Source of the DNA: Iphione sp. A-MEVVRFRX5
Lineage: Eukaryota
Length of the DNA: 64,000 nucleotides
Direction: 5' to 3'
Assembly: GCA_976226885.1 (NCBI GenBank)
Contig: OZ320316.1
Span: 101,928,001 to 101,992,000, forward strand
The first letter of the stretch is position 1. Every line of letters starts with the position of its first letter. Positions 3,656-38,577 of the stretch are shown here, one piece after another. The position numbers and the translations under genes are program-made. A model generated the notes under the pieces. The model was not told the DNA's origin. It saw only the letters and a program-made list of their open reading frames with translations, and did no database searches.

Positions 3656-5151
3656 CAATTCTTACTGCAGTTAGTATCATTGCTCCTGTTAGCATAACAA
3701 CCATCATTTTCCAGCTTTGCAAGAACTATCACTTGTACTCTTACCATACTTAAACATATCCTTACTACATGTATACTTAATTTGTTATTAGTATGCATGT
3801 GTATAATGAATCAATCTAAATGAAAACCAAAACTTTGAGGCCCTAGGAACATGGTACCTTCCGGAACGATCCGATCGGTCTCTATGCAGGGGTTAGATTA
3901 AGACAACAGGCTCCCCCTAGTGGAGAAAGCCCCCTTCTACTAAATACTGGGAATCCAGTACCACCATATCGTTACTAGTACCAGCCAAGCAGTGGTCTCC
4001 ACCACCGCCGCCCGCCACTACCACCATCATCGAGTGGATCTCCGGATTTTACCGCGCTGTCTGTTTGGTCTTGAATATATCTGTCTGTGGTGACATCCCA
4101 GGAAGTAAACACTCCATGCATGTCAGACACCACGCAGACACGCCCAACAAAGGCTATCACAGCTGAACCATAGACCGAGGCAGACGGGTCATACTAAGGA
4201 GCTTTGCCATCCATATGTCATCCTTTCCCCTCCAGAGTAGACAGAGGCTTCATCTGTTACTCCATCTATGTCGGCACTCCCGAGGGATATACATATTTGT
4301 TTTCCAGTCTGAGATTTTTACCTCCGTCTTCTTACTGTCGCCGGCTTTTCATGTCGACTGAGTCTTCGGGAGATGGGGCGGAACACACACAGACAATACA
4401 CATGTAGAGGTGTTTGATTAAGTACGCCGGCGACGACCGGGGAAATATGCATGCTGGGGTTCGGTGGAGCTGATAAACAAAGCGCAGTGATTCCCGATCG
4501 TATCATATGTGTTGGTCAGAATGAAGGACGAGTCTCAGATTATTTCCCAGCTTATAATTATTCGTCTTCTGTGTTTATCTTATTCCCAGACACCCCTTGT
4601 CCATGCTCGTCGTTCAACATAAGGCATTGTCACAGACCAATGACGTATGCCCGCAGGAAACGTAGGCCTATACATGTATATGGAGCGGTAATTCAGCCGA
4701 AGTAGTTTGTGATACGAATATTTAGGCTTTTCATATCTGTCACAACATGGAGAAGTTAACATAACAACAAATAAGTACAGGAAGCTCTATATCAAGCTGT
4801 ATTATTCTCCCGAAAGGTCATGTGTATAATGTTGGGTGTTTTTTCCCTGGTATAAATTCAAGGAAACGAATGAAATCAATATATATGTACTGCCCCCTTG
4901 CTCTATATACACTTGCACATTGTTTGTTGTTTGTTTGTTTGTTTGCTTGTGGTTTGCAGTTTACAGGGAGGCCCGGCTTTACGGTGTCATGTTCTCCTGA
5001 ACTGGCTCCTTGCTTGCCGGATGTCTGTAGTAATGCAAATCACCTACTTAACGTAAAAAAAAACAAATTTTTATCTAATTTGAAATATTTATTCAAATCT
5101 TCTCTCTCTTCTCTTCTCCACCATCCACCCATCCATTCATCCACCCCTCAG

Positions 5152-6218
5152 ACGGTCACGGAGGTCGGGTGGAGTTCGACAAGCAGGGCGACGGCCTGGG
5201 CCGCTACTACATTCTCAACTACCGGCGCAACCGCACCACGCGCCGCTTCGAGTACGTGCGCGTCGGGCGCTGGTCGTCGTCGGGGCTCACCATGTTCGAC
5301 GATCAACGCGTCGTGTGGACGGGCGGCACCTACGACGTGCCGGACAGTCGCTGTTCTCAGCCGTGCGGGCCGGACGAGATCAAGAAGGGCCAGCAGGGGG
5401 ACACCTGCTGCTGGATCTGCACCAAGTGCCGCCCGTACGAGTACGTCCGCGACGAGTTCACCTGCGAGGACTGCGGCGACGGTTACTGGCCGCATGCGCA
5501 CAAGCGCTCCTGCTACAAGCTTCCGGAGAAGTACATCCGCTGGAACAGCGTCTTCGCCATCGTGCCCATCTGCCTGAGCGTGCTGGGCATCCTCCTGACC
5601 TGTATAGTCATCCTGACCTTCCTGCGTCACTGGGACACCCCCATAGTGAAAGCCTCCGGCCGCGAACTTAGCTTCCTGCTGCTGGCCGGTTTCCTCGTGT
5701 GCTACTCCATGTCGTTCATCCTTATCATCAAGCCCTCGGCGCTCGTCTGCGGCGTGCAGCGCTTCGGGGTCGGCTTCGGCTTCAGCATGACGTACGCCTC
5801 GCTGCTCACCAAGACCAACCGCATCTCGCGCATCTTCGACAGCGCCAGCAAGTCGGCCAAGCGCCCGGCCTTCATCAGCCCCAAGTCGCAGCTGCTCATC
5901 AGCGCCATCTTGATCGGCTTCCAGGTGGTGTTCGCCTGCGTGTGGATGGTGCTCGAGCCGCCGGCCACCCGCCATTACTACCTGGGCGGCCAGCGTGACC
6001 AGGTGATCCTCAAGTGTCGCATCAAGGACATCTCCTTCTTGGTGTCGCTCATCTACAACATGCTGCTCATCGTCGTGTGCACGGTGTACGCTGTCAAGAC
6101 GAGGAAGATCCCCGAGAACTTCAACGAGTCCAAGTTCATCGGCTTTACCATGTACACCACCTGTATCATCTGGCTGGCCTTCGTGCCCATCTACTTCGGC
6201 ACGCTCAACTCCTTCGAG
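5152..6218 (+). CDS. mGluR: Metabotropic glutamate receptor (group II / DmGluRA-like), internal exon: end of Venus-flytrap domain, cysteine-rich domain, TM1-TM6
   Basis: Acceptor ...ccacccctcag|AC at 5151/5152 and donor TTCGAG|gtaagt at 6218/6219. Translation has FDKQGDGLGRY, a 9-Cys CRD (CSQPC...CCWICTKC...C..C...C), KASGRELS, LLTKTNRISRIF and KTRKIPENFNESKFIGFTMYTTCIIWLAFVPIYFG. Codons are strongly G/C-ending. Upstream exons are outside the window. Confidence 0.97.
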
Positions 6219-6560
6219 GTAAGTATCTTAACCTTGAATTGACCTTATCCCGGGGTCAAAGAGCTTCACTATGTTTGCTACTTGTATTGCCTGTCTCACC
6301 TTTGTGTTGATCTTAGACATGCTCAACTCCTTCGAGGTAAGAACCCTGACCTTGAGATGACCTTATCCTGGGTCAAGCAGCTTCACTAGGTTTGCTACTT
6401 GTAAATGCCTGTCTCCCCTTTGTGTTGATCTAAGACATGTTTAACTCCTTCGAGGTGGGGAACCTGACCTTGAGATGACCCTGTCCTGTTCACTTTAACA
6501 TTGCCTGTGTGACCTTTAGGTTGATCTCAGACTTGGCTAACTCTTTTCAGGTAAAGTTTG
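6203..6560 (+). repeat. 118-bp tandem repeat whose unit contains the mGluR exon end and 5' splice site (4 copies)
   Basis: aactccttcgag|gt with the GT at 6219, 6337 and 6455, plus a diverged aactcttttcag|gtaaag with the GT at 6551. Confidence 0.9.
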
Positions 6561-27921: not shown

Positions 27922-29240
27922 TCACACTCCCCACTATGTTTTTTCTAGACACCACGATTAAAATCAGGGGAGGGTTATAATATAGAGGACGTTGCTGATA
28001 ATTTGATTTTATTACCCTTATCATTAATTGTCTCTTTCCCTACATGAAGATGTTGATCATCGTGACAGGGTCTCGTGTACCAAGGCATCATAATCTAGGA
28101 CAGATCGCAGTGATGTAATCGCTGTTAATAAGGCATGCGAAAACAAAACAAGTTGGTATACGAAAGTTTGCAAAATTGTTTTTAAATAAAAGAAAACATA
28201 GTGCAATATTCACATTGTATTTGTCTTTTATTGAGCAGTGCATTATACAGTCGATTCTCACTTAGGAGACCACGTCTTGAACTGGAGATATTGGGTATCT
28301 GCTGAGGTCTGGTCTCCCTTGTGATCTGGTCTTCCAAGCGAGAATCGACTGAATTTCTTAATTTAGCCTTATTTTTCTCCTAGTATTAGTTATTTTTTCA
28401 TAATATCTAGCCAGAGCAAAACTGTTCAGATCATTTCTTAAATATAACAAACGAGGTAGGTTAGCGAGATCACATTGGTTTACTTCCTTAAGTCCATTCT
28501 GGAGAGCAAAAGAAACCTTATTGAAGCTAACGCTGACTAAAAAACATGAAAAAGACTGGTCAAGCGAAACCATAAACGGACATCTTGGAAAAGACAATTA
28601 AAAAGAAATCTGATTGCATCTGAAAAGTTTTATTTTGATTCGTCATAAGAACGTAGGGTCACATTCACGCCTTCAGAAAGCTGGAAATGAATTGAAAGTT
28701 AAAGTTTCAGAGTACATGTATTGTTTTTGACTTGCATTTTTCGGGTGTGCACGTTTTCTATATTTTGAACAGTCGATTATACCGTATATATTGTTAATGG
28801 TTGACGTAGACAAAATTCCTCTCCTTTTTTTCATTATTATTATGTACATTTATTCGTACATTATGCGTGTAGTTAGGGTCAATCCTAACTCAACTGATGT
28901 ATCGACAGATAGTTAAAAACAACAGGGGGAAAACACTGCTTTTAATCTGGGTGGCCAACACCTCGGTGATGGGTGCATAGGTGAGATAGTCTGATCATTG
29001 AAGGTACCAATCCAATACGTCAAATCCGCCAATTGAAGGAAGGGACCGTACGTACTGCCTTAATATTTTGGTACATCATTACAAGGAACCAATAAACAAT
29101 TTTCGCACATAAATCAAAAGGAAGCAATATATATAAGTACATATGTATATGATTGGGTAGTTACAGGAATAAGCGGATAAGGAACGTGAAAGGCATCGAG
29201 TGAAACTAATGTGGATGTAGGTTTATGTGTATGTAAATAT

Positions 29241-29478
29241 TGTTCGCCCCGAACGAAGAGACATGACAACTAGGTTACTTTTGAAGGTTTATTCTCGAAG
29301 AACAGAAGGTGAATGACGACAGGACTCCGCCCGGTTCTAATTTATACACATAACGTAACTCCGGGCGGAGCCCCTCACGATACCGGACATAACTCCGGTG
29401 ACACATCACTCCCTAGCGGAGTAACCCCGGGCGGAGCCCAACACTCCCTAGCGGAGTAACCCCGGGCGGAGCCCAACA
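29241..29478 (-). repeat. 3' LTR (238 bp)
   Basis: Direct repeat of 38183-38420 (231/238 identical). On the - strand: TATAAA (plus tttata 29341-29346), AATAAA, and a 35-bp tandem duplication at the U3 end. Confidence 0.97.
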
Positions 29479-29489
29479 CTGCCCCCCTC
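29479..29489 (-). promoter_or_regulatory. Polypurine tract
   Basis: The - strand reads GAGGGGGGCAG immediately before the 3' LTR TGTT. Confidence 0.85.
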
Positions 29490-29587
29490 GAACAAAGAGC
29501 TCAGTCCCTGAGCAACCATGCGTAACCGAACATGCAAAACAGCAACTATAACAGTCAGCAACAAGATAAATCAACCCGGGGGAACCT

Positions 29588-32506
29588 CTACTGGTCCCCT
29601 GATGATCTCTCTACTGAGACCTTAAACTCTTCCTCCAGAGACAGGTCTAATTGGTCTGTCTCCGGTACGTTGGCAGTCAGTTCTGAGTGCACCAATGTCG
29701 GATGCACCCGGGGCTCCTTCCGCCCGTGCATTTGGAGCCACTCTGTCGGAGACTTTGCCCTGGATGGGTCTGGGGTGCGGAGCCGAAGCTGCACCCCCTG
29801 CCGGATCCGCACTAGGGTGTTGCTAGTCTGGGGAGTAACTGTTGCTATCCCGCGCGCAGAGAGTAAAGGCCACCCCTCAGGAGGAACGGAGAGGGGTGTA
29901 ACGACCCGAGCCTGGGCCCAACGCACAACCGGCCCCAGCACCTCGGCCACCTCCAATCTCAGCTGGCGACAAGCCACAGGCCTAGTGTTGGTCCGCCTGG
30001 CTACGTCCCCAGCGGACCCTGGTGCTGTCCCCGGGCGGGAGGGCCCGACCGAGGCCGGAGTGCTGGTAGCCAGTGGTGGAACTGTCTGGTCTCTACGCAT
30101 GAGTCCTGCTACTACCCCGGGGCGTCGTTCCACCAAGACAGAGTGGGTGGCACGTCCCAGGCGTCCCAGGAGTGCTGGGGAGAGGATCCCTCGGCTCGCT
30201 GAGGTAGCGGGCTGTACTCCCTCTCGCCGTCCCGGGAGTGCCGGGGGGAGGACCTCCTGGAGCCTTGGAGGAGGGGCCGGTTGCTCCCCCTCCTCCTCGC
30301 GTCATCCCGGGAGTGCCGGGGGGAGGACCTCCTGGTCCACTGGGGGACAGACTGGCCGCTCACTCTCCTCGTCGTGTCGTCCCGGGGGTGCTGGGGGGGG
30401 GGGACCTCCTGGTCCTTGGGAGGAGGGGCCGGTTGCTCCCCCTCCTCCTCGCGTCGTCCCGGGAGTGCCGGGGGGAGGACCTCCTGGTCCACTGGGGGAG
30501 GGACTGGCTGCTCACTCTCCTCGTCGCGTCGTCCCGGGGGTGCCGGGGGGAGGACCTCCTGGTCCTTGGGAGGAGGGGCCGGTTGCTCCCCCTCCTCCTC
30601 GCATCGTCCCGGGAGTGCTGGGGGGAGGACCTCCTGGTCCGCCGGGGGAGAGACTTGCTGCTCCCCCCCCTCCTTGCGTTGTCCCGGGGGTACCGGGGGG
30701 AGGACCTCCTGGTCCATCGGAAGTCGGGTGGTCGCTCTCCCTCCTCCTCGTGTCGTCCCGGGGGTGCCGGGGGGAGGACCTCCTGGTCTGTTAGGGGAAG
30801 GGTTGGCGGTCCTCCCTTCCCCTCCTGCTGGCTAGGGAGGGTGCCGGACGCTGTCGCCCTTACTGGAGTACTGGAGCTGGTGACGAGTGAGGGCGGTACC
30901 TCACCCTGCTGGCCGCAAGACTCTGGCGAAACTCCGCCTTCACCGGAGTCCGCTGATTCACTCCGCCCCGCCTGTAGATCACCGGAGTCCGGTCGCCGCT
31001 CCGTCTCAAAGGAGGAGGGACCCCAGCCGAGCTCCGCCAAGGTAACCGCCGTCTCCTCCTCAGTGGGCAAGTCTTCTTCTGACTCCTCGGCGATAGCTCC
31101 CCCCGTGAGCTCCAGCCGAGCATAACGCACCCGGCCACACGTGCTTCCCGGGCTCTGACTCAGCTCGGTGGCCAGGGTGCTCGAGGCGACTGTCTCATCC
31201 TGTCCCTGACTTGCCTCCTCATCAGAGTCCGGATCGGACCCTATGATCACGACGTGTGGGGCTGCTCCGACCGCTCGACGTTTTCCCAACCTTCTCCCAG
31301 GCGCTCATCCAATTCCCTCGCTGCTGCACTGTACGAGGAGGACCCCGCGGAGCCGGGAGTAGACTGAGGAGTGAACCCTTGGCCCTTGATGCCAGATGTG
31401 ACCAGGGCCCTCTGCAGTGGAGACATGGTGGATGACGCGGCGCCCTTCTTCGCCGGGGAGGGCAGGCTAGCTGGGGTAATCGGACTGGTCTGCGGCTGGT
31501 ACTTCCTCTTTTCTCGAGCCTCCTCCCTCATGGCGGCCAGATTCCAGCCACGTCCGGGAGTGATCGGGTCTTCTTCTTCTGGGGGGGACCTCGGCCTGGC
31601 CCGCCCTCTGGCCAGCACTCGAACTCGCGCTGCTCCGGGGGTGGAAGGAAGGGCGGGTGCAGGGGACCTCGCGGAGGTAGAGGGAGACCACCCCTGCGAT
31701 CGGATCCCGCGCCCGACTCCTCGCAGAGGTACGCCCGGAGACATATCCAGCCCGTAGAGTTGTGCCTCGATGGAAGCCGTGGACACCGGTGTGACAGGGG
31801 TCCTCGACCCCCCAGGCGTGGACACCGTGGAAGAAACTTGGGCGCCCCTCCCCGTCTGAGGCCGAAGTTGGCGGGGCTCCACCACTTCTTTGCACTCTCC
31901 CTCACTGGTGGAAGAGACTGAGACTGAGACTTGGGCACCCCTCCCCGTCCGGGGCCGGAGTTGGCGGGGCTCCACCACCTCCTCTTGTTCCTCTTCTCCC
32001 CCTTCTTCCGCCTGTTCCTCTTCTCCCTCTGCCTCTTCCCCTTCATCTTTGTCCTCGTCCTCCCAGTCCTTGTCCAACGAGACCTCAGCAGCAGCTGACG
32101 CAGCCGGGGGAGGGCGCCGGCCTAGCTTCGGGCGGGACGGCGGAGCTTCCCCCCGACACATGGCCAGTTCCTTAGCCCTCTCGTAGGCCTCGGCCTTCAT
32201 CTGGCGCTGGTACTCCACTTCCTTCTCGGGTGGCACGGGGATGATCTCTTTCCTGGTGAGGTCCATATACACCACATCCACGAACTGGCCCAGTTCCAGA
32301 GGGCGCTCGGCCTCCTTGTCATGCTGTTTCTCAAGGTGCCGCCGGAAATCGTCCCAGCGGCCAAAATCTGCCCCCCGGCAGCGGGGAACCGGGCAGATCC
32401 GGACAAATCCTCTCCTCGCATGCCTCTTCTTATGGCGTTTAAAGTTGGAGGGGTGGTCCGTGGTGTAACCACAGGTCTGACAGAGACGGACCTTGTTCCT
32501 TGGCAT
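29588..32506 (-). pseudogene. Accessory ORF3 of the Gypsy element: about 970-aa C2H2 zinc-finger protein (3 frameshifts, 1 in-frame stop)
   Basis: First ATG at 32506 (MPRNKVRL). CQTC-x12-H-x3-H and CPVPRC-x13-H-x4-H at 32482-32321. Frames join across indels near 31290, 30740 and 30400 and a TGA at 30304-30302. Ends at stop 29588-29590, about 100 nt before the PPT. Confidence 0.85.
30235..30790 (-). repeat. 75-bp coding tandem repeat x8 (25-aa DQEVLPPA(P/L)PGRxxEEGEQPxPPP) inside ORF3
   Basis: gacctcc at 30251, 30326, 30403, 30478, 30553, 30628, 30703 and 30777. Confidence 0.95.
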
Positions 32507-32754
32507 TTCGTCCTCCACCCGGGCAACGAGGCAAACTCCGGCAGCTTGAGTGAACTCCGGTGGCGGAGTGGTAGACTCCGGTGACCCAAGTGAGTTCTGA
32601 AAAGAACTCCCAACGTACTCCGGTGGCAGAGCGATGCGGCCTCGGCCGTCGGGCGGTGGACAATCTGGCACGTACTCCGGTGGGGCCCAGCAAAAACTCC
32701 GAAGTCGGGGCAGAGCTCGGCGGTGAACAGTACGAATGGCCTCCTGCAGGGCCA

Positions 32755-32930
32755 CCTCCTTATATCTGCGCGCCCAGGACTCCGCCGGTCTCTGATTGGC
32801 CCAGCATTCCCGCGCTTCGCACTGATTGGTCGATGTCGAGCGGAGTGCGGTAATTCGCCCGCCCGGAGTCTGTTGTAGGACTCCGCTGACTTCGTGGGGA
32901 CTCCGGGCGGAGCTTAGGGCGAACTCCGGC
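32755..32930 (-). promoter_or_regulatory. Putative internal Pol II promoter upstream of ORF3
   Basis: In - strand order: GC-rich GCGGAG sites (32912-32840), CCAAT (32829-32825), CCAAT (32799-32795), TATAAG (32764-32759). No ATG until 32506. Confidence 0.65.
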
Positions 32931-35900
32931 CGCTACACGCTTCTTCCAAGTCGGGTGCCGCCTCTCTCCTATCTTCCTCCACAGCACCTGCACCAAGTGG
33001 TCAGTGGCACGACGCCCATACTGGCGCTGTAACCTCCTCCGCAGGCCCAGCAATTTCTTCATGGCCCAGTAGAACCTGAGGGCTGGGCCGACCCACTCTC
33101 TCCCGGTGACCAATGGCTGACAAACAGAGAGGGGTTGGAGGGCGCGGCAGGTCCGGTCACTCAGGATGCGAAGCTCGGCAGCGACCAGATCTACCCACCC
33201 CTGAGGAATCCGGACGACCGGCGGGGGGCGCGGTACAGAGGGTGGAGGTCTGGAGCTCTGTCCCTGGACCCGTCTGTACCAGCGAGGGGGGGGCACCGGA
33301 GGTTGAACCCGACCTCCTTCCAGGCCCCGGTGGTCCGGCTCATGCCGTAGCATCCTGACTCGTCCCAGCACCTCTTCTTGCTCTCCCACCATCGGGTCCA
33401 CGGCTCGCTTTAAGAGGTCTGCGTTTACTACCCGGCGGCGCTGTCCCCGTTTAATCCGGTAGACCACGGCGCTTAGTCTCGATTGGACCTCCCACGGACC
33501 TTGCCAACGGCTTTGCAGTTTGGGGGACCGCCCCTTCTTCTTGATAGGACTGTAGAGCCACACCCGGTCTCAGACATCGAACTCCTGGGGCCTGACCTTC
33601 TTATCGTACCAATCCTTCTGACGTTCAGCGGCTCTCTGTAAGTGCCACCACACGGCCCGGTGGGCCTCCACGAAGCGACGGTGGACCTCCTCCACGTACC
33701 CGGCTACCGATCGCCGCTCTTCCTTCGGGGACCCCACCATCAACTCGATGGGCAGAGTAGTCTCTCGTTGCAGGGTAAGCCAGTTTGGGGAGAACCCTGT
33801 CGTACGATGTGGTGTGGCTCGGTAGGCGGCAAGGACGTACGGAACCTTCTCATCCCAGTCAGACTGGTCTACACGCACCACTTTGGCCAGCATGCTGAGA
33901 AGAGTCCTATCAAACCTCTCCACTACCCCGTCGCTCTGAGGGTGGTTGGGGGTAGTTCGCGACCGTTGAATCCCGAGAAGTTGTAGCAGCTCCTGCACGA
34001 CCGCCGCCTCGAAATTCCTTCCTTGATCCGAATGGAGGACCCGCGGAGGCCCGAACTGGCAGATAACTTCCCGTAGTAAAATCTCAGCGGTGGCTGTCGC
34101 AGTTACCTCCTTCGCCGGGAAGGCTTCGGTCCACTTGGTGAAATGGTCGGCCACCACCAGGATGTACTTGTTCCCCCTGACCGTCTCGGGGAACGGGCCG
34201 CACACGTCCATGGCGACGAACTCCCAGGGGGCGGGGGCTACTCACAGCTGCAAGGGGGCCCGATGCCGCCGGGAAGGGTCCTGCCTCTGCTGGCAAGGGA
34301 GGCATGCCCGCCCCCACTGCTGGACGTCACGTGCCAGCCCAGGCCAGCAATATTTGCGTCGTAGAGCCCCTTCGGTCTTTTCGGGGCCAAGGTGCCCCCC
34401 CATGACTCCGGCGTGGACCTCCTGCCAAACGTGGAAGCGACGTCCCTCGGGTACATAGGCTTGATACCAGGTGGTTCCGTCTTCGCCTTCCCACCGGCGG
34501 CAAAGGAGACCTCCCCTCATCTCCAGCCGGGGCGCTTCTCCCTTCAGCCAACGCTCCTCTCGTCCATCTCCGCTGCTCGGCGGGGGAATTGCCTCCCCCA
34601 ACTCGAGAGCCCGCAGCACAGGCCCTGCCCTGTCGTCTTACTTCTGGGCATAACTCAGAGTGTCCTCTTCGACTGGCTCCACGGACACCGCCGCTACCTG
34701 CCCCATCTCGTCCAGCTCCGTCGGCTCCCTCCCGCACTGTGGGCATATCTGCCTCGAGAGGCCGTCCGCGTTACCATGCTTCTTACCCGGTCGGTGGATG
34801 ATCTCCAGGTCGTAGCAGTGTACCTCTTCTAGCCAGCGTGCGAACTGGCCTTCCGGGGCTCTGAAGTGGCACAACCAGCACAGTGAACTATGGTCTGTAC
34901 AGACCACTAGCTTCAGGCCCCCCACATACGAGCGGAACTTGCGGAGACCAAACACGACCGCCAATAATTCCTTCCGGGTCACGCAGTAGTTCCGCTCCGG
35001 GCATGTGAGACTCCGGCTTGCATAGGTCAACACTCGCTCCCTTCCGTCTTGCTCCTGTGAGAGTACCGCTCCTATGCCGGCAGCGGAAGCGTCCGTGTCC
35101 AATGTCATCGGTCCTTCCGGTCGGGGATAGGCCAACACCGGAGAGGAGACCAGCCTTGCCTTCAAAGTGACAAAAGCCTGCTGACAGTCAGGGGTCCAAC
35201 GGTACTCCTTGCCTTTCTCCAGCAGTTCGTGCAGGGGAGCGGCCACCGCGGCGAACCCCTCCACAAAGCTGCGGTAGTAAGAGCAGAGGCCGACGAAGCT
35301 CCGAAGTTCGGTAATGCAACGGGGGACCAGCCAGGCTTGCACAGATGCGATCTTCTCCGGATCCGGCTCCACTCCATCGGCCGACACTTGATGTCCCAGG
35401 TACGCCACCCTCTTCTGAAACAGCTGGCACTTCCGGGGTTTCACCTTAAGGCCTGCCATCCGAAGCCTGCTGAACACCTCGTCCAGGCGCCGGGTCATCT
35501 CCTCCACGGTTCTGCCGATCACGATCACGTCATCCAAGTAGACCAGGCAGGACTGGCCAACCAGTCCTCACAGCACGGCTTCCATCAGACGCTCAAAGGT
35601 AGAAGGCGCGTTACACAACCCGAAGGGCATGACGCGGAATTGGTAGAGTCCCCTGGGCATGCACACGGCCGTCTTTCCCTTATCCTCGGGCCGCACTCCC
35701 ACCTGCCAGTATCCGCTGGCCGGATAGATTGCCGAGAAATAACGTCCCCCTTGCAGAGCGTCCAACGTCTGGTCGATGCGGGGTAGGGGATAGGCGTCCT
35801 TCTTGGTCACCCCGTTCAGCGCCCGGTAGTCTATGCAGAACCTCCAACTCTGATCCTTCTTGCGCACCAATACCACTGGCGACGCCCAGGGACTCGTTGA

Positions 35901-37061
35901 GGGTTCCAGCACTCCTTGCCACAACATCTTGTCCACTTCTTGCTGGACCAGAGCCTTCTTGGCCGGCGGTAGGCGTCGGACCCTCTGCCAAATCGGTCCG
36001 TGACCCTGCGTGTCTATCCGATGTTGGACTACCTCTGTCCGACCCAGCGCTCCTCCCTCCTCCTGGAAGCAGTCCGCGTTCTTCCGTAGCATCCGCTCTA
36101 CCTCTTCCCTCTGCGACTCATCTAGTTCCTTGGGCAATTGCTCCAACAGACCTTGCAGCGCGGACCCGGGCCCGGGCTCTCTACCGGCTCGGGCACTCTC
36201 CTCCTGCTCCAGTCTGTCCGCCCCGTCGACCAGCTGGACTCTCGCGACGACTGTCCCTTGCCACAAGCAATGTCCCCGAGCACTCACGTTGGCAATCTCT
36301 ACCGCTCCCTCTCGGCTACCAGCTGGGCACACCGTGCGTGCCAGCACCATACCTGAGCGGCCCTCCCACTCGGGGGAGGCCTCCACCAACACTGGTTGAT
36401 CCTCATCATCGAGCCCTTCCCAGCGCACGCGGGCCTGTACCGCGCTCCGCCCACTGAGCTGATAATCCTCAACCAGTACAGCCCGACATCCTTCCGTGCT
36501 GTCGTCCTTGGGGACACGCACCCGAAGTGCGGTCCCCTCCGTGTCCACCTGCGCTCTCCAGCAGCATAGCATGTCCAACCCCAGTATCGCGGGGCAATCA
36601 ATTCGGGCCACCCAGGCCTTGACTTCGAGCTCCACTCCAGCGAACTGTACCCGTACTCGGGTCCGGCCCCTCACCCGGAGAGGCTGCCCATCCGCACACA
36701 GGATCCGCCCCGCGGCAGGCTCCAGTTCAGCCAGAGCCAGGGCGTCGGCTACCTCCTCTGAAAGCAATGTGAGGGAGGCTCCCGTATCCACCAACCAGGG
36801 CACCCGGAGCCCGGCCACTTCGCTGGGGAGCACAATGTTCATCCCTCGGTTTTGCTCCCCTTCTAGAACCACTTCCTCCCCCGCCTCCAGGTGCAGCTTC
36901 CGCAGGTGCTCGTCCAGCGTGTCCTCACCATCATCACGCCTCTCCTCGGCCGTCACCCCTACTGTGGGGGGATGGCCGCTCCCCCGTTTCCCAACGGCTG
37001 TTCCTTGGGGGGATGGGGACAATTCCACTTGAAGTGTCCCAACTCGCCACAATTGAAGCAC
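32760..37061 (-). pseudogene. pol: Gypsy pol (protease, RT, RNase H, integrase); single frame with 4 premature stops
   Basis: LVDTGAS (PR), WRFCIDYRALN / MPFGLCNAPSTF / YLDD (RT), LDTDAS (RH), H-x6-H...C-x2-C, MDVCGP / HSDQGRNFE / VERF (IN DDE), WQGPW (GPY/F). In-frame stops at 35570-35568, 34640-34638, 34244-34242 and 33572-33570. Confidence 0.96.
36940..36992 (-). promoter_or_regulatory. -1 programmed ribosomal frameshift signal (gag-pol)
   Basis: G GGA AAC heptamer in the gag frame (plus 36986-36992). A 7-nt spacer precedes a CGGCC...GGCCG stem with an inner CCCC/GGGG. pol is in the -1 frame. Confidence 0.8.
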
Positions 37062-38134
37062 TTTTTACTCGCCGGTCGCCGGTTTTCCTTGTTAGCTTCG
37101 GTCTGCCCTGCTAGTAGCTGTTGCAGCAGCTGCTCTAAGCGTTCCCACCCGCCAGACAGAACCTCTTTCTTCGGGGCCGTAGTAGAGGGAGCGGGCGCTT
37201 GCCCCAGGGCCTCCAACTTGTGTACTTTCTTGGGACTCCCCCTATCCATCTTATTCTGGTAGTACGATTCCGCGACTTGCGAGGCCGAAAGCGCTTCACG
37301 GAAGGTGGATATCCGGGCTTGGGTCACCCACTTCCGGACCTTCTCGTTAGAGAGGGCTCCCACGTAGTACTCCCGGCACATCCGATCTTTCCACTTCCCC
37401 TTCGCCTCCGGGTAAGCCAGCTGGATCAGACGCTTGATCTCGTCGGCCAGGTCCGCCAGTGCTTCGGACTTCTCCTGTCGCCGCCCCTTTAACTGCTGGA
37501 TGTAAGCATCCGTCTGATGCTTGGACTGGAAGCGTTCGGTGAGGGCATTTACCAACTGTTGGTACGCCCCTGCTTGTTCCACATCCACGCCAGTGCTTCG
37601 CAGAACCGCTCGTGCCGACTTCCGAAGTGTGATTCCTAGCTGGAGGGCCTTGTCAGCCTCCGTACAGTGATTGGCGAGTGCCACTAACTCGAAGTGCTGA
37701 AGGAAATGTCGGAGCGGAGTGCTACCATCGTAGGTGTCTGGTTTCACCTGGCCCTTCCTGCCGCCTTCAGGCCATAGCGCGGAGCGAAGTCCTTCCACAA
37801 ATCCGGTCCACAAGGGGGGCGGAGTGGCCGTCTCCGCCTCTCCCTCCTCAGCACCTCCTTCGAGGTGTAGGTCATTACCTCCTACGCCTTCGTCGACCGG
37901 GGCGTGGGGAGCAGAGCCTTGGGCCGGTGTTGGCCCCTCTTCCTCCTCTTCTGGCTCGACTCCCCTTCCTGGTGGGGCATCTTCACTCTCTGGGGAGCAA
38001 CTGTCCTCTTCTCCTGACAGTTCATGAGCCCCGGCAGACTCCGGGCGGAGCTGGGCGGAGTCCGGCCAGACCACGGCGAACTCCGCCCCTTCACCGGATT
38101 CCCCTGGTTCAGCTACCTCCGCCCGGATCTTCAT
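36959..38134 (-). CDS. gag: Gypsy gag (capsid-like domain and CCHC knuckle), frame open
   Basis: VKPDTYDGSTPLRHFLQHFELVA capsid motif and CFNCGELGHFKWNC knuckle. ATG at 38134 after the PBS; the frame is open back to an ATG at 38206 inside the LTR. Confidence 0.92.
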   Translation of the reverse strand: MKIRAEVAEPGESGEGAEFAVVWPDSAQLRPESAGAHELSGEEDSCSPESEDAPPGRGVEPEEEEEGPTPAQGSAPHAPVDEGVGGNDLHLEGGAEEGEAETATPPPLWTGFVEGLRSALWPEGGRKGQVKPDTYDGSTPLRHFLQHFELVALANHCTEADKALQLGITLRKSARAVLRSTGVDVEQAGAYQQLVNALTERFQSKHQTDAYIQQLKGRRQEKSEALADLADEIKRLIQLAYPEAKGKWKDRMCREYYVGALSNEKVRKWVTQARISTFREALSASQVAESYYQNKMDRGSPKKVHKLEALGQAPAPSTTAPKKEVLSGGWERLEQLLQQLLAGQTEANKENRRPASKKCFNCGELGHFKWNCPHPPKEQPLGNGGAAIPPQ

Positions 38135-38162
38135 CGACTCCGCCGAGCTCCCTGGAGGGAAG

Positions 38163-38180
38163 ATCCCACTGCTGCCACCA
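38163..38180 (-). promoter_or_regulatory. Primer-binding site, tRNA-Leu type
   Basis: The - strand reads TGGTGGCAGCAGTGGGAT, 2 nt after the 5' LTR. It is complementary to a ...ATCCCAC(C/T)GCTGCCACCA tRNA-Leu 3' end (from recall, not searched). Confidence 0.8.
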
Positions 38181-38182
38181 AT

Positions 38183-38420
38183 TGTTCGCCCCGAACGAAG
38201 AGACATGACAACTAGGTTACTTTTGAAGGTTTATTCTCGAAGAATATAAGGTGAATGACGACAGGACTCCGCCCGGTTCTAATTTATACACATAACGTAA
38301 CTCCGGACGGAGCCCCCCACGATACCGGACATAACTCCGGCAACACAACACTCCCTAGCGGAGTAACCCCGGGCGGAGCCCAACACTCCCTAGCGGAGTA
38401 ACCCCGGGCGGAGCCCAACA
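38183..38420 (-). repeat. 5' LTR (238 bp)
   Basis: Direct repeat of 29241-29478, followed by PBS and gag on the - strand. Confidence 0.97.
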
Positions 38421-38577
38421 ATATATTAATCTATCAATTTTTTTGGAAAAAAATACCTTAAACATTATGAAAACCATACGTCAAAAAACAAAGGTCTCTC
38501 TGTCTGTCTGTCTGCCTATTTCTCTCTATTCTTCTCTCTTACTCTCTCTTCCCCCTCTCTCTCCCTGGTTCTCTTTC

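Follow-up and report, generated by a model that had tools for sequence, protein, structure and literature searches.

A selected C2H2 zinc-finger gene downstream of the integrase in Gypsy retrotransposons of Iphione sp. and its possible role in self-regulation

Retrotransposons with long terminal repeats (LTRs) are commonly assumed to depend on the transcription factors of their host. Some of them are known to carry a third open reading frame (ORF3) that is not an envelope (env) gene (PMC5408684, PMC7264820, PMC8220671, PMC11952523, PMC10309623), and the available sections of these papers report nuclear roles that were proposed or shown for some of the products. Meanwhile, the accessible part of a 2019 review counts three transposon-encoded anti-silencing mechanisms, all in plants, and asks why there are so few (PMC6719617). 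Here we describe a Ty3/Gypsy element of Iphione sp. A-MEVVRFRX5 with a C2H2 zinc-finger (ZF) gene after pol. The element occupies 38420-29241 on the minus strand of a stretch of 64,000 nt (assembly GCA_976226885.1, contig OZ320316.1, positions 101,928,001 to 101,992,000), which is called the window below. An earlier note, made from the letters of the window only, had read the gene as a transcription-factor-like ORF3 in the env position. We found that the gene is real and under selection, that ZF-bearing Gypsy elements are widespread, and that the ZF protein may regulate the element that encodes it.

The LTRs, target-site duplication (TSD), primer-binding site and polypurine tract of the element were all found. 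The two LTRs, 238 nt each, are identical at 231/238 positions, have TG...CA ends and are flanked by ATAT on both sides, and the TSD of 4 bp matched in 28/30 family copies scored with both LTRs. Gag lies ahead of pol, whose Gypsy-type domains follow the order protease (PR), reverse transcriptase (RT), RNase H (RH) and integrase (IN), and the motif GGGAAAC in the gag/pol overlap was present in 48/50 copies. Chromoviruses have a chromodomain in the integrase tail; no chromodomain was matched in any of the 10 ORF pieces of the element. In addition, the ZF ORF has no homology to env, and it lacks a signal peptide, a cleavage site and a transmembrane helix. The element is Gypsy by every feature tested, and it is neither an errantivirus nor a chromovirus. 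In the RT-RH-IN trees, which were built without named reference elements, its neighbours were proteins of molluscs, fish, sponges and amphioxus (40-47% identity). It should be noted that the window copy is dead, with several frameshifts, four stops in pol (35570, 34640, 34244 and 33572) and a further stop in the ZF gene.

To place this copy in its family, a DNA search of the genome was used, in which 40 copies of 626 candidates were scored, together with a protein search, in which 150 of 2,997 candidates were scored (identity at least 86%). Among the 39 siblings fetched, 33 covered at least 8,700 of the 9,180 nt, and some copies have identical LTR pairs; the family is very large and young. The ATG of the ZF gene was present in 40/40 copies, and in three of the 40 the frame ran unbroken as far as the shared stop (919-1,045 codons). 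The 40-copy set was chosen via the ZF region, and an integrase-anchored search was added as an independent entry. Of its 150 matches, 70 lay in open frames of at least 1,600 codons and 40 in frames of at least 2,500 codons, whereas PR to IN alone takes ~1,200 codons. These matches run through the ZF gene. Siblings lacking the gene, which the earlier note had held up as evidence against its reading, were thus not what we found, and its view that the gene belongs to the element, inside the TSD-bounded LTR pair, was borne out.

The ZF protein has ~1,000 residues and consists of two C2H2 fingers, an acidic and disordered middle, repeats and a folded C-terminal domain. In the window copy, the gene runs from ATG 32506 to the TAG at 29590-29588, 2,916 nt apart. 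Its frame is interrupted by a stop at 30304 and by indels that shift it, near 31256 and within the repeats (30346-30500); the earlier note had given the same ends and about the same damage. Both finger strings that it reported at the start of the ORF are present, and its acidic, basic and Ser/Pro-rich segments correspond to an acidic tract and a Ser/Pro/Arg-rich region. The zinc-ligand pattern C-x2-4-C-x12-H-x3-5-H is conserved, with 13 residues between C and H in finger 2. Finger 1 matched PF00096 (E 5e-4, under the curated cut-off), and a finger profile made across families matched CTCF fingers (E 1e-9). No hydrophobic segment was found, the best 19-residue Kyte-Doolittle mean being 0.79 in a natural sibling copy, which agrees with the earlier statement that the product is not an envelope.

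Selection on the gene and its surroundings was measured on an alignment of 50 of 60 copies, 10 truncated or rearranged copies being left out. The ratio of nonsynonymous to synonymous change (omega) came from pairwise counts on variants shared by at least three copies, and private variants gave the neutral baseline (0.4-0.9). Omega was 0.04 in RT and 0.06 in IN. Within the ZF gene it was 0.10 [0.03-0.18] in the fingers, 0.08 just after them, 0.19 in the low-complexity region, 0.52 in the repeats and 0.13 in the C-terminus, and in the other two frames it was 0.7-3.8. Taking the fingers, the part after them, the low-complexity region and the C-terminus by themselves, private variants gave 0.5-0.8 and the other two frames 0.95-3.8. 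Furthermore, each of the eight zinc ligands was kept in 49-50/50 copies with synonymous change, and every exception was a single copy. The ZF gene is under strong purifying selection; this check had been proposed in the earlier note, and the neutral decay of the ligands that it considered did not occur.

In the protein searches, the finger region had no specific homologue at E<=0.001 among 73 candidates. A second search with it gave 56 matches, of which the 19 scanned were generic C2H2 proteins, leucine-rich repeat proteins or proteins of no family, and a protein-cluster search gave generic C2H2 clusters. Its structure model was middling (pLDDT 61), with weak fold matches to C2H2 proteins only. 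The C-terminal domain was modelled well (pLDDT 85, pTM 0.78); it had no sequence match, no fold match at E<=0.001 and no known family. The highest-ranking structure was a chain of a phage neck/tail-completion protein (Z 7.4, root-mean-square deviation 3.9 over 99 residues), which is in the range of common arrangements, and no homology is claimed.

In this family, pol and the ZF gene form a single frame of ~2,600 codons, and no fixed stop separates the integrase from the fingers. The linker of 308 codons between them kept its frame in 38/50 copies and was stop-free in 27/50, and windows of equal size in RT, RH and IN gave 37-40/50 and 26-29/50. The window copy resembled a free ORF3 because a private frameshift near 32876 hides the family state. 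Of the third ORF in the earlier note, therefore, the own Met stands (kept in 50/50 copies), whereas its separateness does not. The first 200 linker codons (two thirds) are selected as protein (omega 0.27; other frames 1.0-1.1), and three of the four linker indels shared between copies are in frame. The last 108 codons are not selected as protein (omega 0.69). Their synonymous diversity is 0.06 vs ~0.2 elsewhere and is equal at all codon positions; this part is under constraint at the nucleotide level. Within it lie two CCAAT boxes 30 nt apart (48/50 and 50/50 copies), a TATA-like box (48/50) and, 90 nt ahead of the invariant ATG, a site resembling a splice acceptor (50/50). About half of the 50 copies also have a donor-like GTACGT ~80 nt above the acceptor (window 32598-32680), which could delimit a small intron in the 5' untranslated region of a putative internal transcript.

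The module is not limited to this family. A second family in the genome has the same fused layout with an integrase 56% identical, and a search with it gave further families with open frames of 2,150-2,430 codons. At least three more families in the genome share the ZF module, and across these and the family in the window the frames of the fused layout span 2,150-2,650 codons. Eleven sister-family loci have the finger pair and the hairpin-helix in common, and those reading to the end have the C-terminal domain; 10/11 have a Met 5-14 residues ahead of finger 1. Among the best 120 of 764 long, distant Pol homologues, 16 (five of them near-identical) continue in frame into a tail that contains a C2H2 finger, and in all of them a Met precedes the first Cys by 7-17 residues, as judged by eye. 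Meanwhile, seven of 22 metagenome loci have a separate finger-led ORF of 560-700 codons after the pol stop. The free-standing form described in the earlier note is thus absent from the family in the window and present in these distant relatives. The seven ORFs start with Met-Pro, and the finger (six C2H2, one C2HC) follows 6-7 residues on. An acceptor-like site was seen by eye just upstream in most of the seven; a pattern search for acceptors in the metagenome relatives gave no match. Among the other metagenome loci, two keep only the end of ORF3 and one is fused. With one query, the separate type was not found in the Iphione genome, and scans of viral contigs and prokaryote genomes gave no loci.

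In the RT-RH-IN tree, the clade with separate ORF3 is sister to a fused clade (SH-like approximate likelihood ratio test, SH-aLRT, 99.5), and finger-bearing lineages are interleaved with Pols without a fused tail, the latter known from protein only. Profiles of the Iphione module matched the tails of other organisms at the finger level only, and a common origin of all finger-bearing ORF3s beyond the finger is only a candidate.

Several loci showed features of their own. The slot after the integrase accepts many modules in this Pol lineage: related Pols carry PHD (P0121), OTU (P0136), env-like (P0129), PF24664 (P0148/P0157/P0159) and chromodomain (P0078/P0092) extras. Three Gypsy Pol tails (P0077, P0087 and P0112) end in a C2H2 pair, which we take to resemble closely the dimerisation fingers of Ikaros/Hunchback, and a capture of a host transcription-factor interaction domain is possible there. 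Two loci (L097 and L099) share an internal deletion after the pol stop that removed most of ORF3 including the finger, with pol open to its stop; they are candidates for elements relying on ORF3 in trans. In addition, the 5' regions of L092, L093 and L094 hold long tandem arrays of a lineage-specific unit of 9-11 nt (8-22 copies), resembling VANC targets.

The base-contacting residues of the fingers are of the DNA-reading type. The earlier reading of the product as transcription-factor-like was right, and the gene belongs to a wider group than one family. We applied the code R/K/H = G, N = A and D = C, as given in the available part of PMC12264921. Finger 2 (R-1, D3, R6) and finger 1 (H-1, N3, R6) then predict GCG-GAG. 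In the LTR, leader and region before the ATG, GCGGAG ranked second of 2,080 hexamers in 4/4 copies of the family in the window (family 1), with 15-20 sites, and the only hexamer above it was the overlapping CGGAGT. There were 10-13 sites in the LTR and upstream region vs ~1 expected; in RT-IN the density was ~1 per kb, and host DNA had 0.2 per kb. Two sister families with Arg at +3 of finger 1 have GCGGGG instead (rank 2-3 in 4/4 copies, 13-22 sites), a hexamer that ranked 488-2,067 in family 1. Upstream of thirteen other or older sister-family loci, GCGGAG was found in one and GCGGGG in 11. The motif therefore varies between related families, and its switch parallels the change of the +3 residue. 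Around insertions, no motif was found in 7,800 nt within 100 nt of the site (39/60 copies); the flanks are AT-rich and the target sites are plain AT-rich NTAN. The motif-free flanks argue against insertion targeting guided by the motif.

We consider it somewhat probable that this Gypsy element encodes its own sequence-specific DNA-binding self-regulator, Tas- or VANC-like in its working. The gene, its selection, the frame continuity, the motif clusters and the code match are results of the analysis; the binding, a subgenomic RNA and the sign of the effect are inferred. The protein would bind GCGGAG/CGGAGT arrayed in the LTR, in the leader and upstream of its own start codon, would switch on copies of its own family in trans or shield them from silencing, and would feed back on its own gene. 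It is probably made in two forms: one would start at its own Met and be translated from a subgenomic RNA (through an internal promoter or a splice), and the other would be the tail of the Pol polyprotein. We propose self-regulation because the predicted GCGGAG target is repeated in the control regions of the element; the activating direction is a guess based on the acidic region.

Some points weigh against this proposal. The motif was spotted by eye first and the code was applied afterwards. Only three helix types occur among the sampled families, which are related, and 12 further loci added none. With Asn at -1, as in sister families, the strict code gives GCGGGA, which ranked only 89-414, and the family with Lys at +6 fits partially, showing GTGCG(A/G) with GCGGGG at rank 109-221. 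About half of the family-1 sites are CCGGAG rather than GCGGAG. Furthermore, the finger linker and the finger-2 spacing are non-canonical, the CCAAT/TATA signals are not conserved in the sister families, and finger 1 is not preceded by a Met in one young sister copy. In the relatives with a single finger, the 5' regions contain tandem arrays of motifs, for which the code gives no clear result.

The last-named sister copy would also suit a protein acting only as a Pol tail, whose fingers would stay on the integrase or be cut from it and bind cDNA/LTR motifs of the element or chromatin, and would thereby help with nuclear retention or integration in the manner of a chromodomain tail. The frame, continuous in family 1 and in at least three sister families, the protein-level selection on the first linker codons and the in-frame shared indels all point in that direction. 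However, the separate-ORF3 clade beside the fused clade indicates that fusion is not required, the Met is kept nearly everywhere, and no motif lies near the AT-rich target sites. We regard this explanation as unlikely.

Another explanation is that the motifs are host-factor sites, namely Sp/KLF GC boxes with NF-Y and TATA signals, that the code match is coincidental, and that the ZF protein acts in RNA export (CERV/Rev-like) or protein binding. We take GGGCGGAGT to resemble the Sp1 GC box. The Sp1-type core GGGCGG, a further difficulty for self-regulation, is contained in 8/28 sites (window copy) or 12/33, with CCAAT and TATA alongside, and RNA export by an accessory protein of a Gypsy element has a precedent, as the consulted part of the CERV report describes (PMC10309623). 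Nevertheless, most family-1 sites are without the Sp1 core, only 0-2 of 30-37 sites have it in the sister families, the motif switch tracks the +3 residue switch of finger 1, and the contact residues are of the DNA-reading type. We regard this combination as quite improbable. A last explanation, which we hold to be very unlikely, is that the protein binds as proposed with the opposite sign and represses or insulates its own family, either to control its own copy number or by competing with host activators that use GC boxes. The data here would fit either sign, and the end pair of the three distant Pol tails presumably resembles a dimerisation domain of repressors, but the middle region is strongly acidic and the family is very large and young. 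Finally, an envelope, a chance ORF and a decayed host-gene capture were rejected on the basis of the selection and the missing hydrophobic segment.

Beyond self-regulation in one family, a broader view is tentative. There may be a widespread and so far undescribed animal Gypsy group whose env slot holds a C2H2 factor for transcription or against silencing. In each family of such a group, finger helix and LTR motif would evolve together, and the gene would alternate between two states, a spliced ORF3 and a Pol tail in frame. The results suggest that retrotransposons are a reservoir of C2H2 modules, and they point to dual expression, with one gene serving as Pol tail and stand-alone protein. Several young, abundant families in one animal genome provide natural protein-motif pairs one recognition residue apart, and self-regulation is therefore directly testable.

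Table 1. Positions of the element's features in the window.
Feature	Position	Strand	Remark
Target-site duplication ATAT, 5' side	38421..38424	.	
5' LTR, 238 nt	38183..38420	-	TATA-like and AATAAA signals; 5 GCGGAG and 5 CGGAGT sites
Primer-binding site	38163..38180	-	presumably tRNA-Leu-like
Second [GC]CGGAG site cluster	38044..38143	-	leader/gag start
gag	36959..38230	-	capsid-like, CCHC knuckle; 423 codons stop to stop
GGGAAAC in gag/pol overlap	36986..36992	-	candidate -1 frameshift site; putative role
pol	33405..37064	-	PR, RT, RNase H, integrase and SH3-like C-terminal domain
Linker, ~300 codons	32507..33404	-	in frame with pol and ZF gene across family; frameshifted near 32876 in window copy
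Third [GC]CGGAG site cluster	32541..32929	-	with promoter-like signals
CCAAT boxes	32829-32825 and 32799-32795	-	in window copy
TATA-like box	32766-32759	-	in window copy
Acceptor-like AG	32598-32597	-	in window copy
C2H2 finger 1	32420..32482	-	helix -1 H, +3 N, +6 R; GAG predicted by the code
C2H2 finger 2	32321..32395	-	helix -1 R, +3 D, +6 R; GCG predicted by the code; 13 residues between C and H
Conserved post-finger hairpin and long helix	32147..32320	-	common to sister families; omega 0.08
Acidic tract and Ser/Pro/Arg-rich low-complexity region	30853..32146	-	omega 0.19
Pro/Glu-rich tandem repeats, 75 nt (25 residues)	30147..30852	-	copy number differs between elements
Folded C-terminal domain	29588..29965	-	helix and long antiparallel sheet; stop 29590-29588
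Polypurine tract	29479..29490	-	
3' LTR	29241..29478	-	
Target-site duplication ATAT, 3' side	29237..29240	.	

The repeat region at 30147-30852 is also open on the antisense (+) strand, over 400-680 codons in many copies, which is probably a by-product of the G+C-rich repeat. A large exon of a host gene, which we take to be metabotropic glutamate receptor-like from its translation, lies at 5079-6242 (+) of the window, 23 kb from the element. Elsewhere in the genome, an unrelated Gypsy (RT 53% identical) is nested in a family copy (L113). Its 725-codon ORF after pol, on the minus strand of L113 (4585-6759 of the reverse complement), is likely a true env: it begins like a signal peptide and has hydrophobic segments and an RKKR site. 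In L071, L112 and L114, the integrase region of a family-2 element is interrupted by an inserted family-1 element, and a fragment of another retroelement, by its motif presumably BEL/Pao-like, lies upstream in L114.

Compared with known systems, the gene lies, like the GDSL/DEDDy ORF3s of rotifers (PMC5408684) and the plant 3' additional ORFs such as gene23 of Grande (PMC7264820), between pol and the 3' LTR, and it may resemble CERV of Cer1, which exports RNA, as a spliced accessory gene (PMC10309623). However, the available portions of these reports describe neither a C2H2 DNA-binding ORF3 nor an alternation between Pol-fused and separate forms. In the literature searched, including the accessible parts of PMC13524379, PMC2836005 and PMC12859917, no precedent for a C2H2 ORF3 in Gypsy was found; annotation may exist in Repbase, Dfam or GyDB, which the literature search did not cover. 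With errantiviruses and other env-carrying Ty3-gypsy elements, as portrayed in the available text, the element shares the gene position and the acceptor-like site before the start (PMC13524379), but it lacks a signal peptide, a transmembrane helix and env homology. The OTU, Ulp1 and PHD tails of Ginger1 are likewise extra domains in frame after the integrase, according to the available text (PMC2836005). Unlike these and the chromovirus tails, the tail described here has ~1,400 residues, its own conserved Met and a C2H2 pair, and it is free-standing in relatives.

The regulator Tas/Bel1 of foamy viruses is also encoded by a retroelement and, in the part of the report available, binds the LTR and an internal promoter (PMC517496), and the motif clusters lie in the same two types of place; predicted from sequence, the clusters in the LTR and upstream of the ZF gene would be response elements in a Tas-like placement. 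Tas is a separate gene of an enveloped retrovirus, whereas here an env-less Gypsy has a C2H2 pair in frame with Pol, and no homology is claimed. VANC of the Arabidopsis VANDAL transposons, in the accessible sections of two papers, is an accessory protein with family-specific short motifs repeated in the element, protein and motif diverging together (PMC5735166, PMC6719617). A family-specific motif that is repeated in the element and varies between families was found here as well. However, VANC belongs to a plant DNA transposon and another protein family and has a demonstrated demethylation activity, whereas an animal LTR retrotransposon with a predicted activity is concerned here. If the broader view given above is true, such a ZF factor would be an animal counterpart of VANC and the mirror image of the host KRAB zinc-finger defence, with a transposon using a C2H2 reader on itself.

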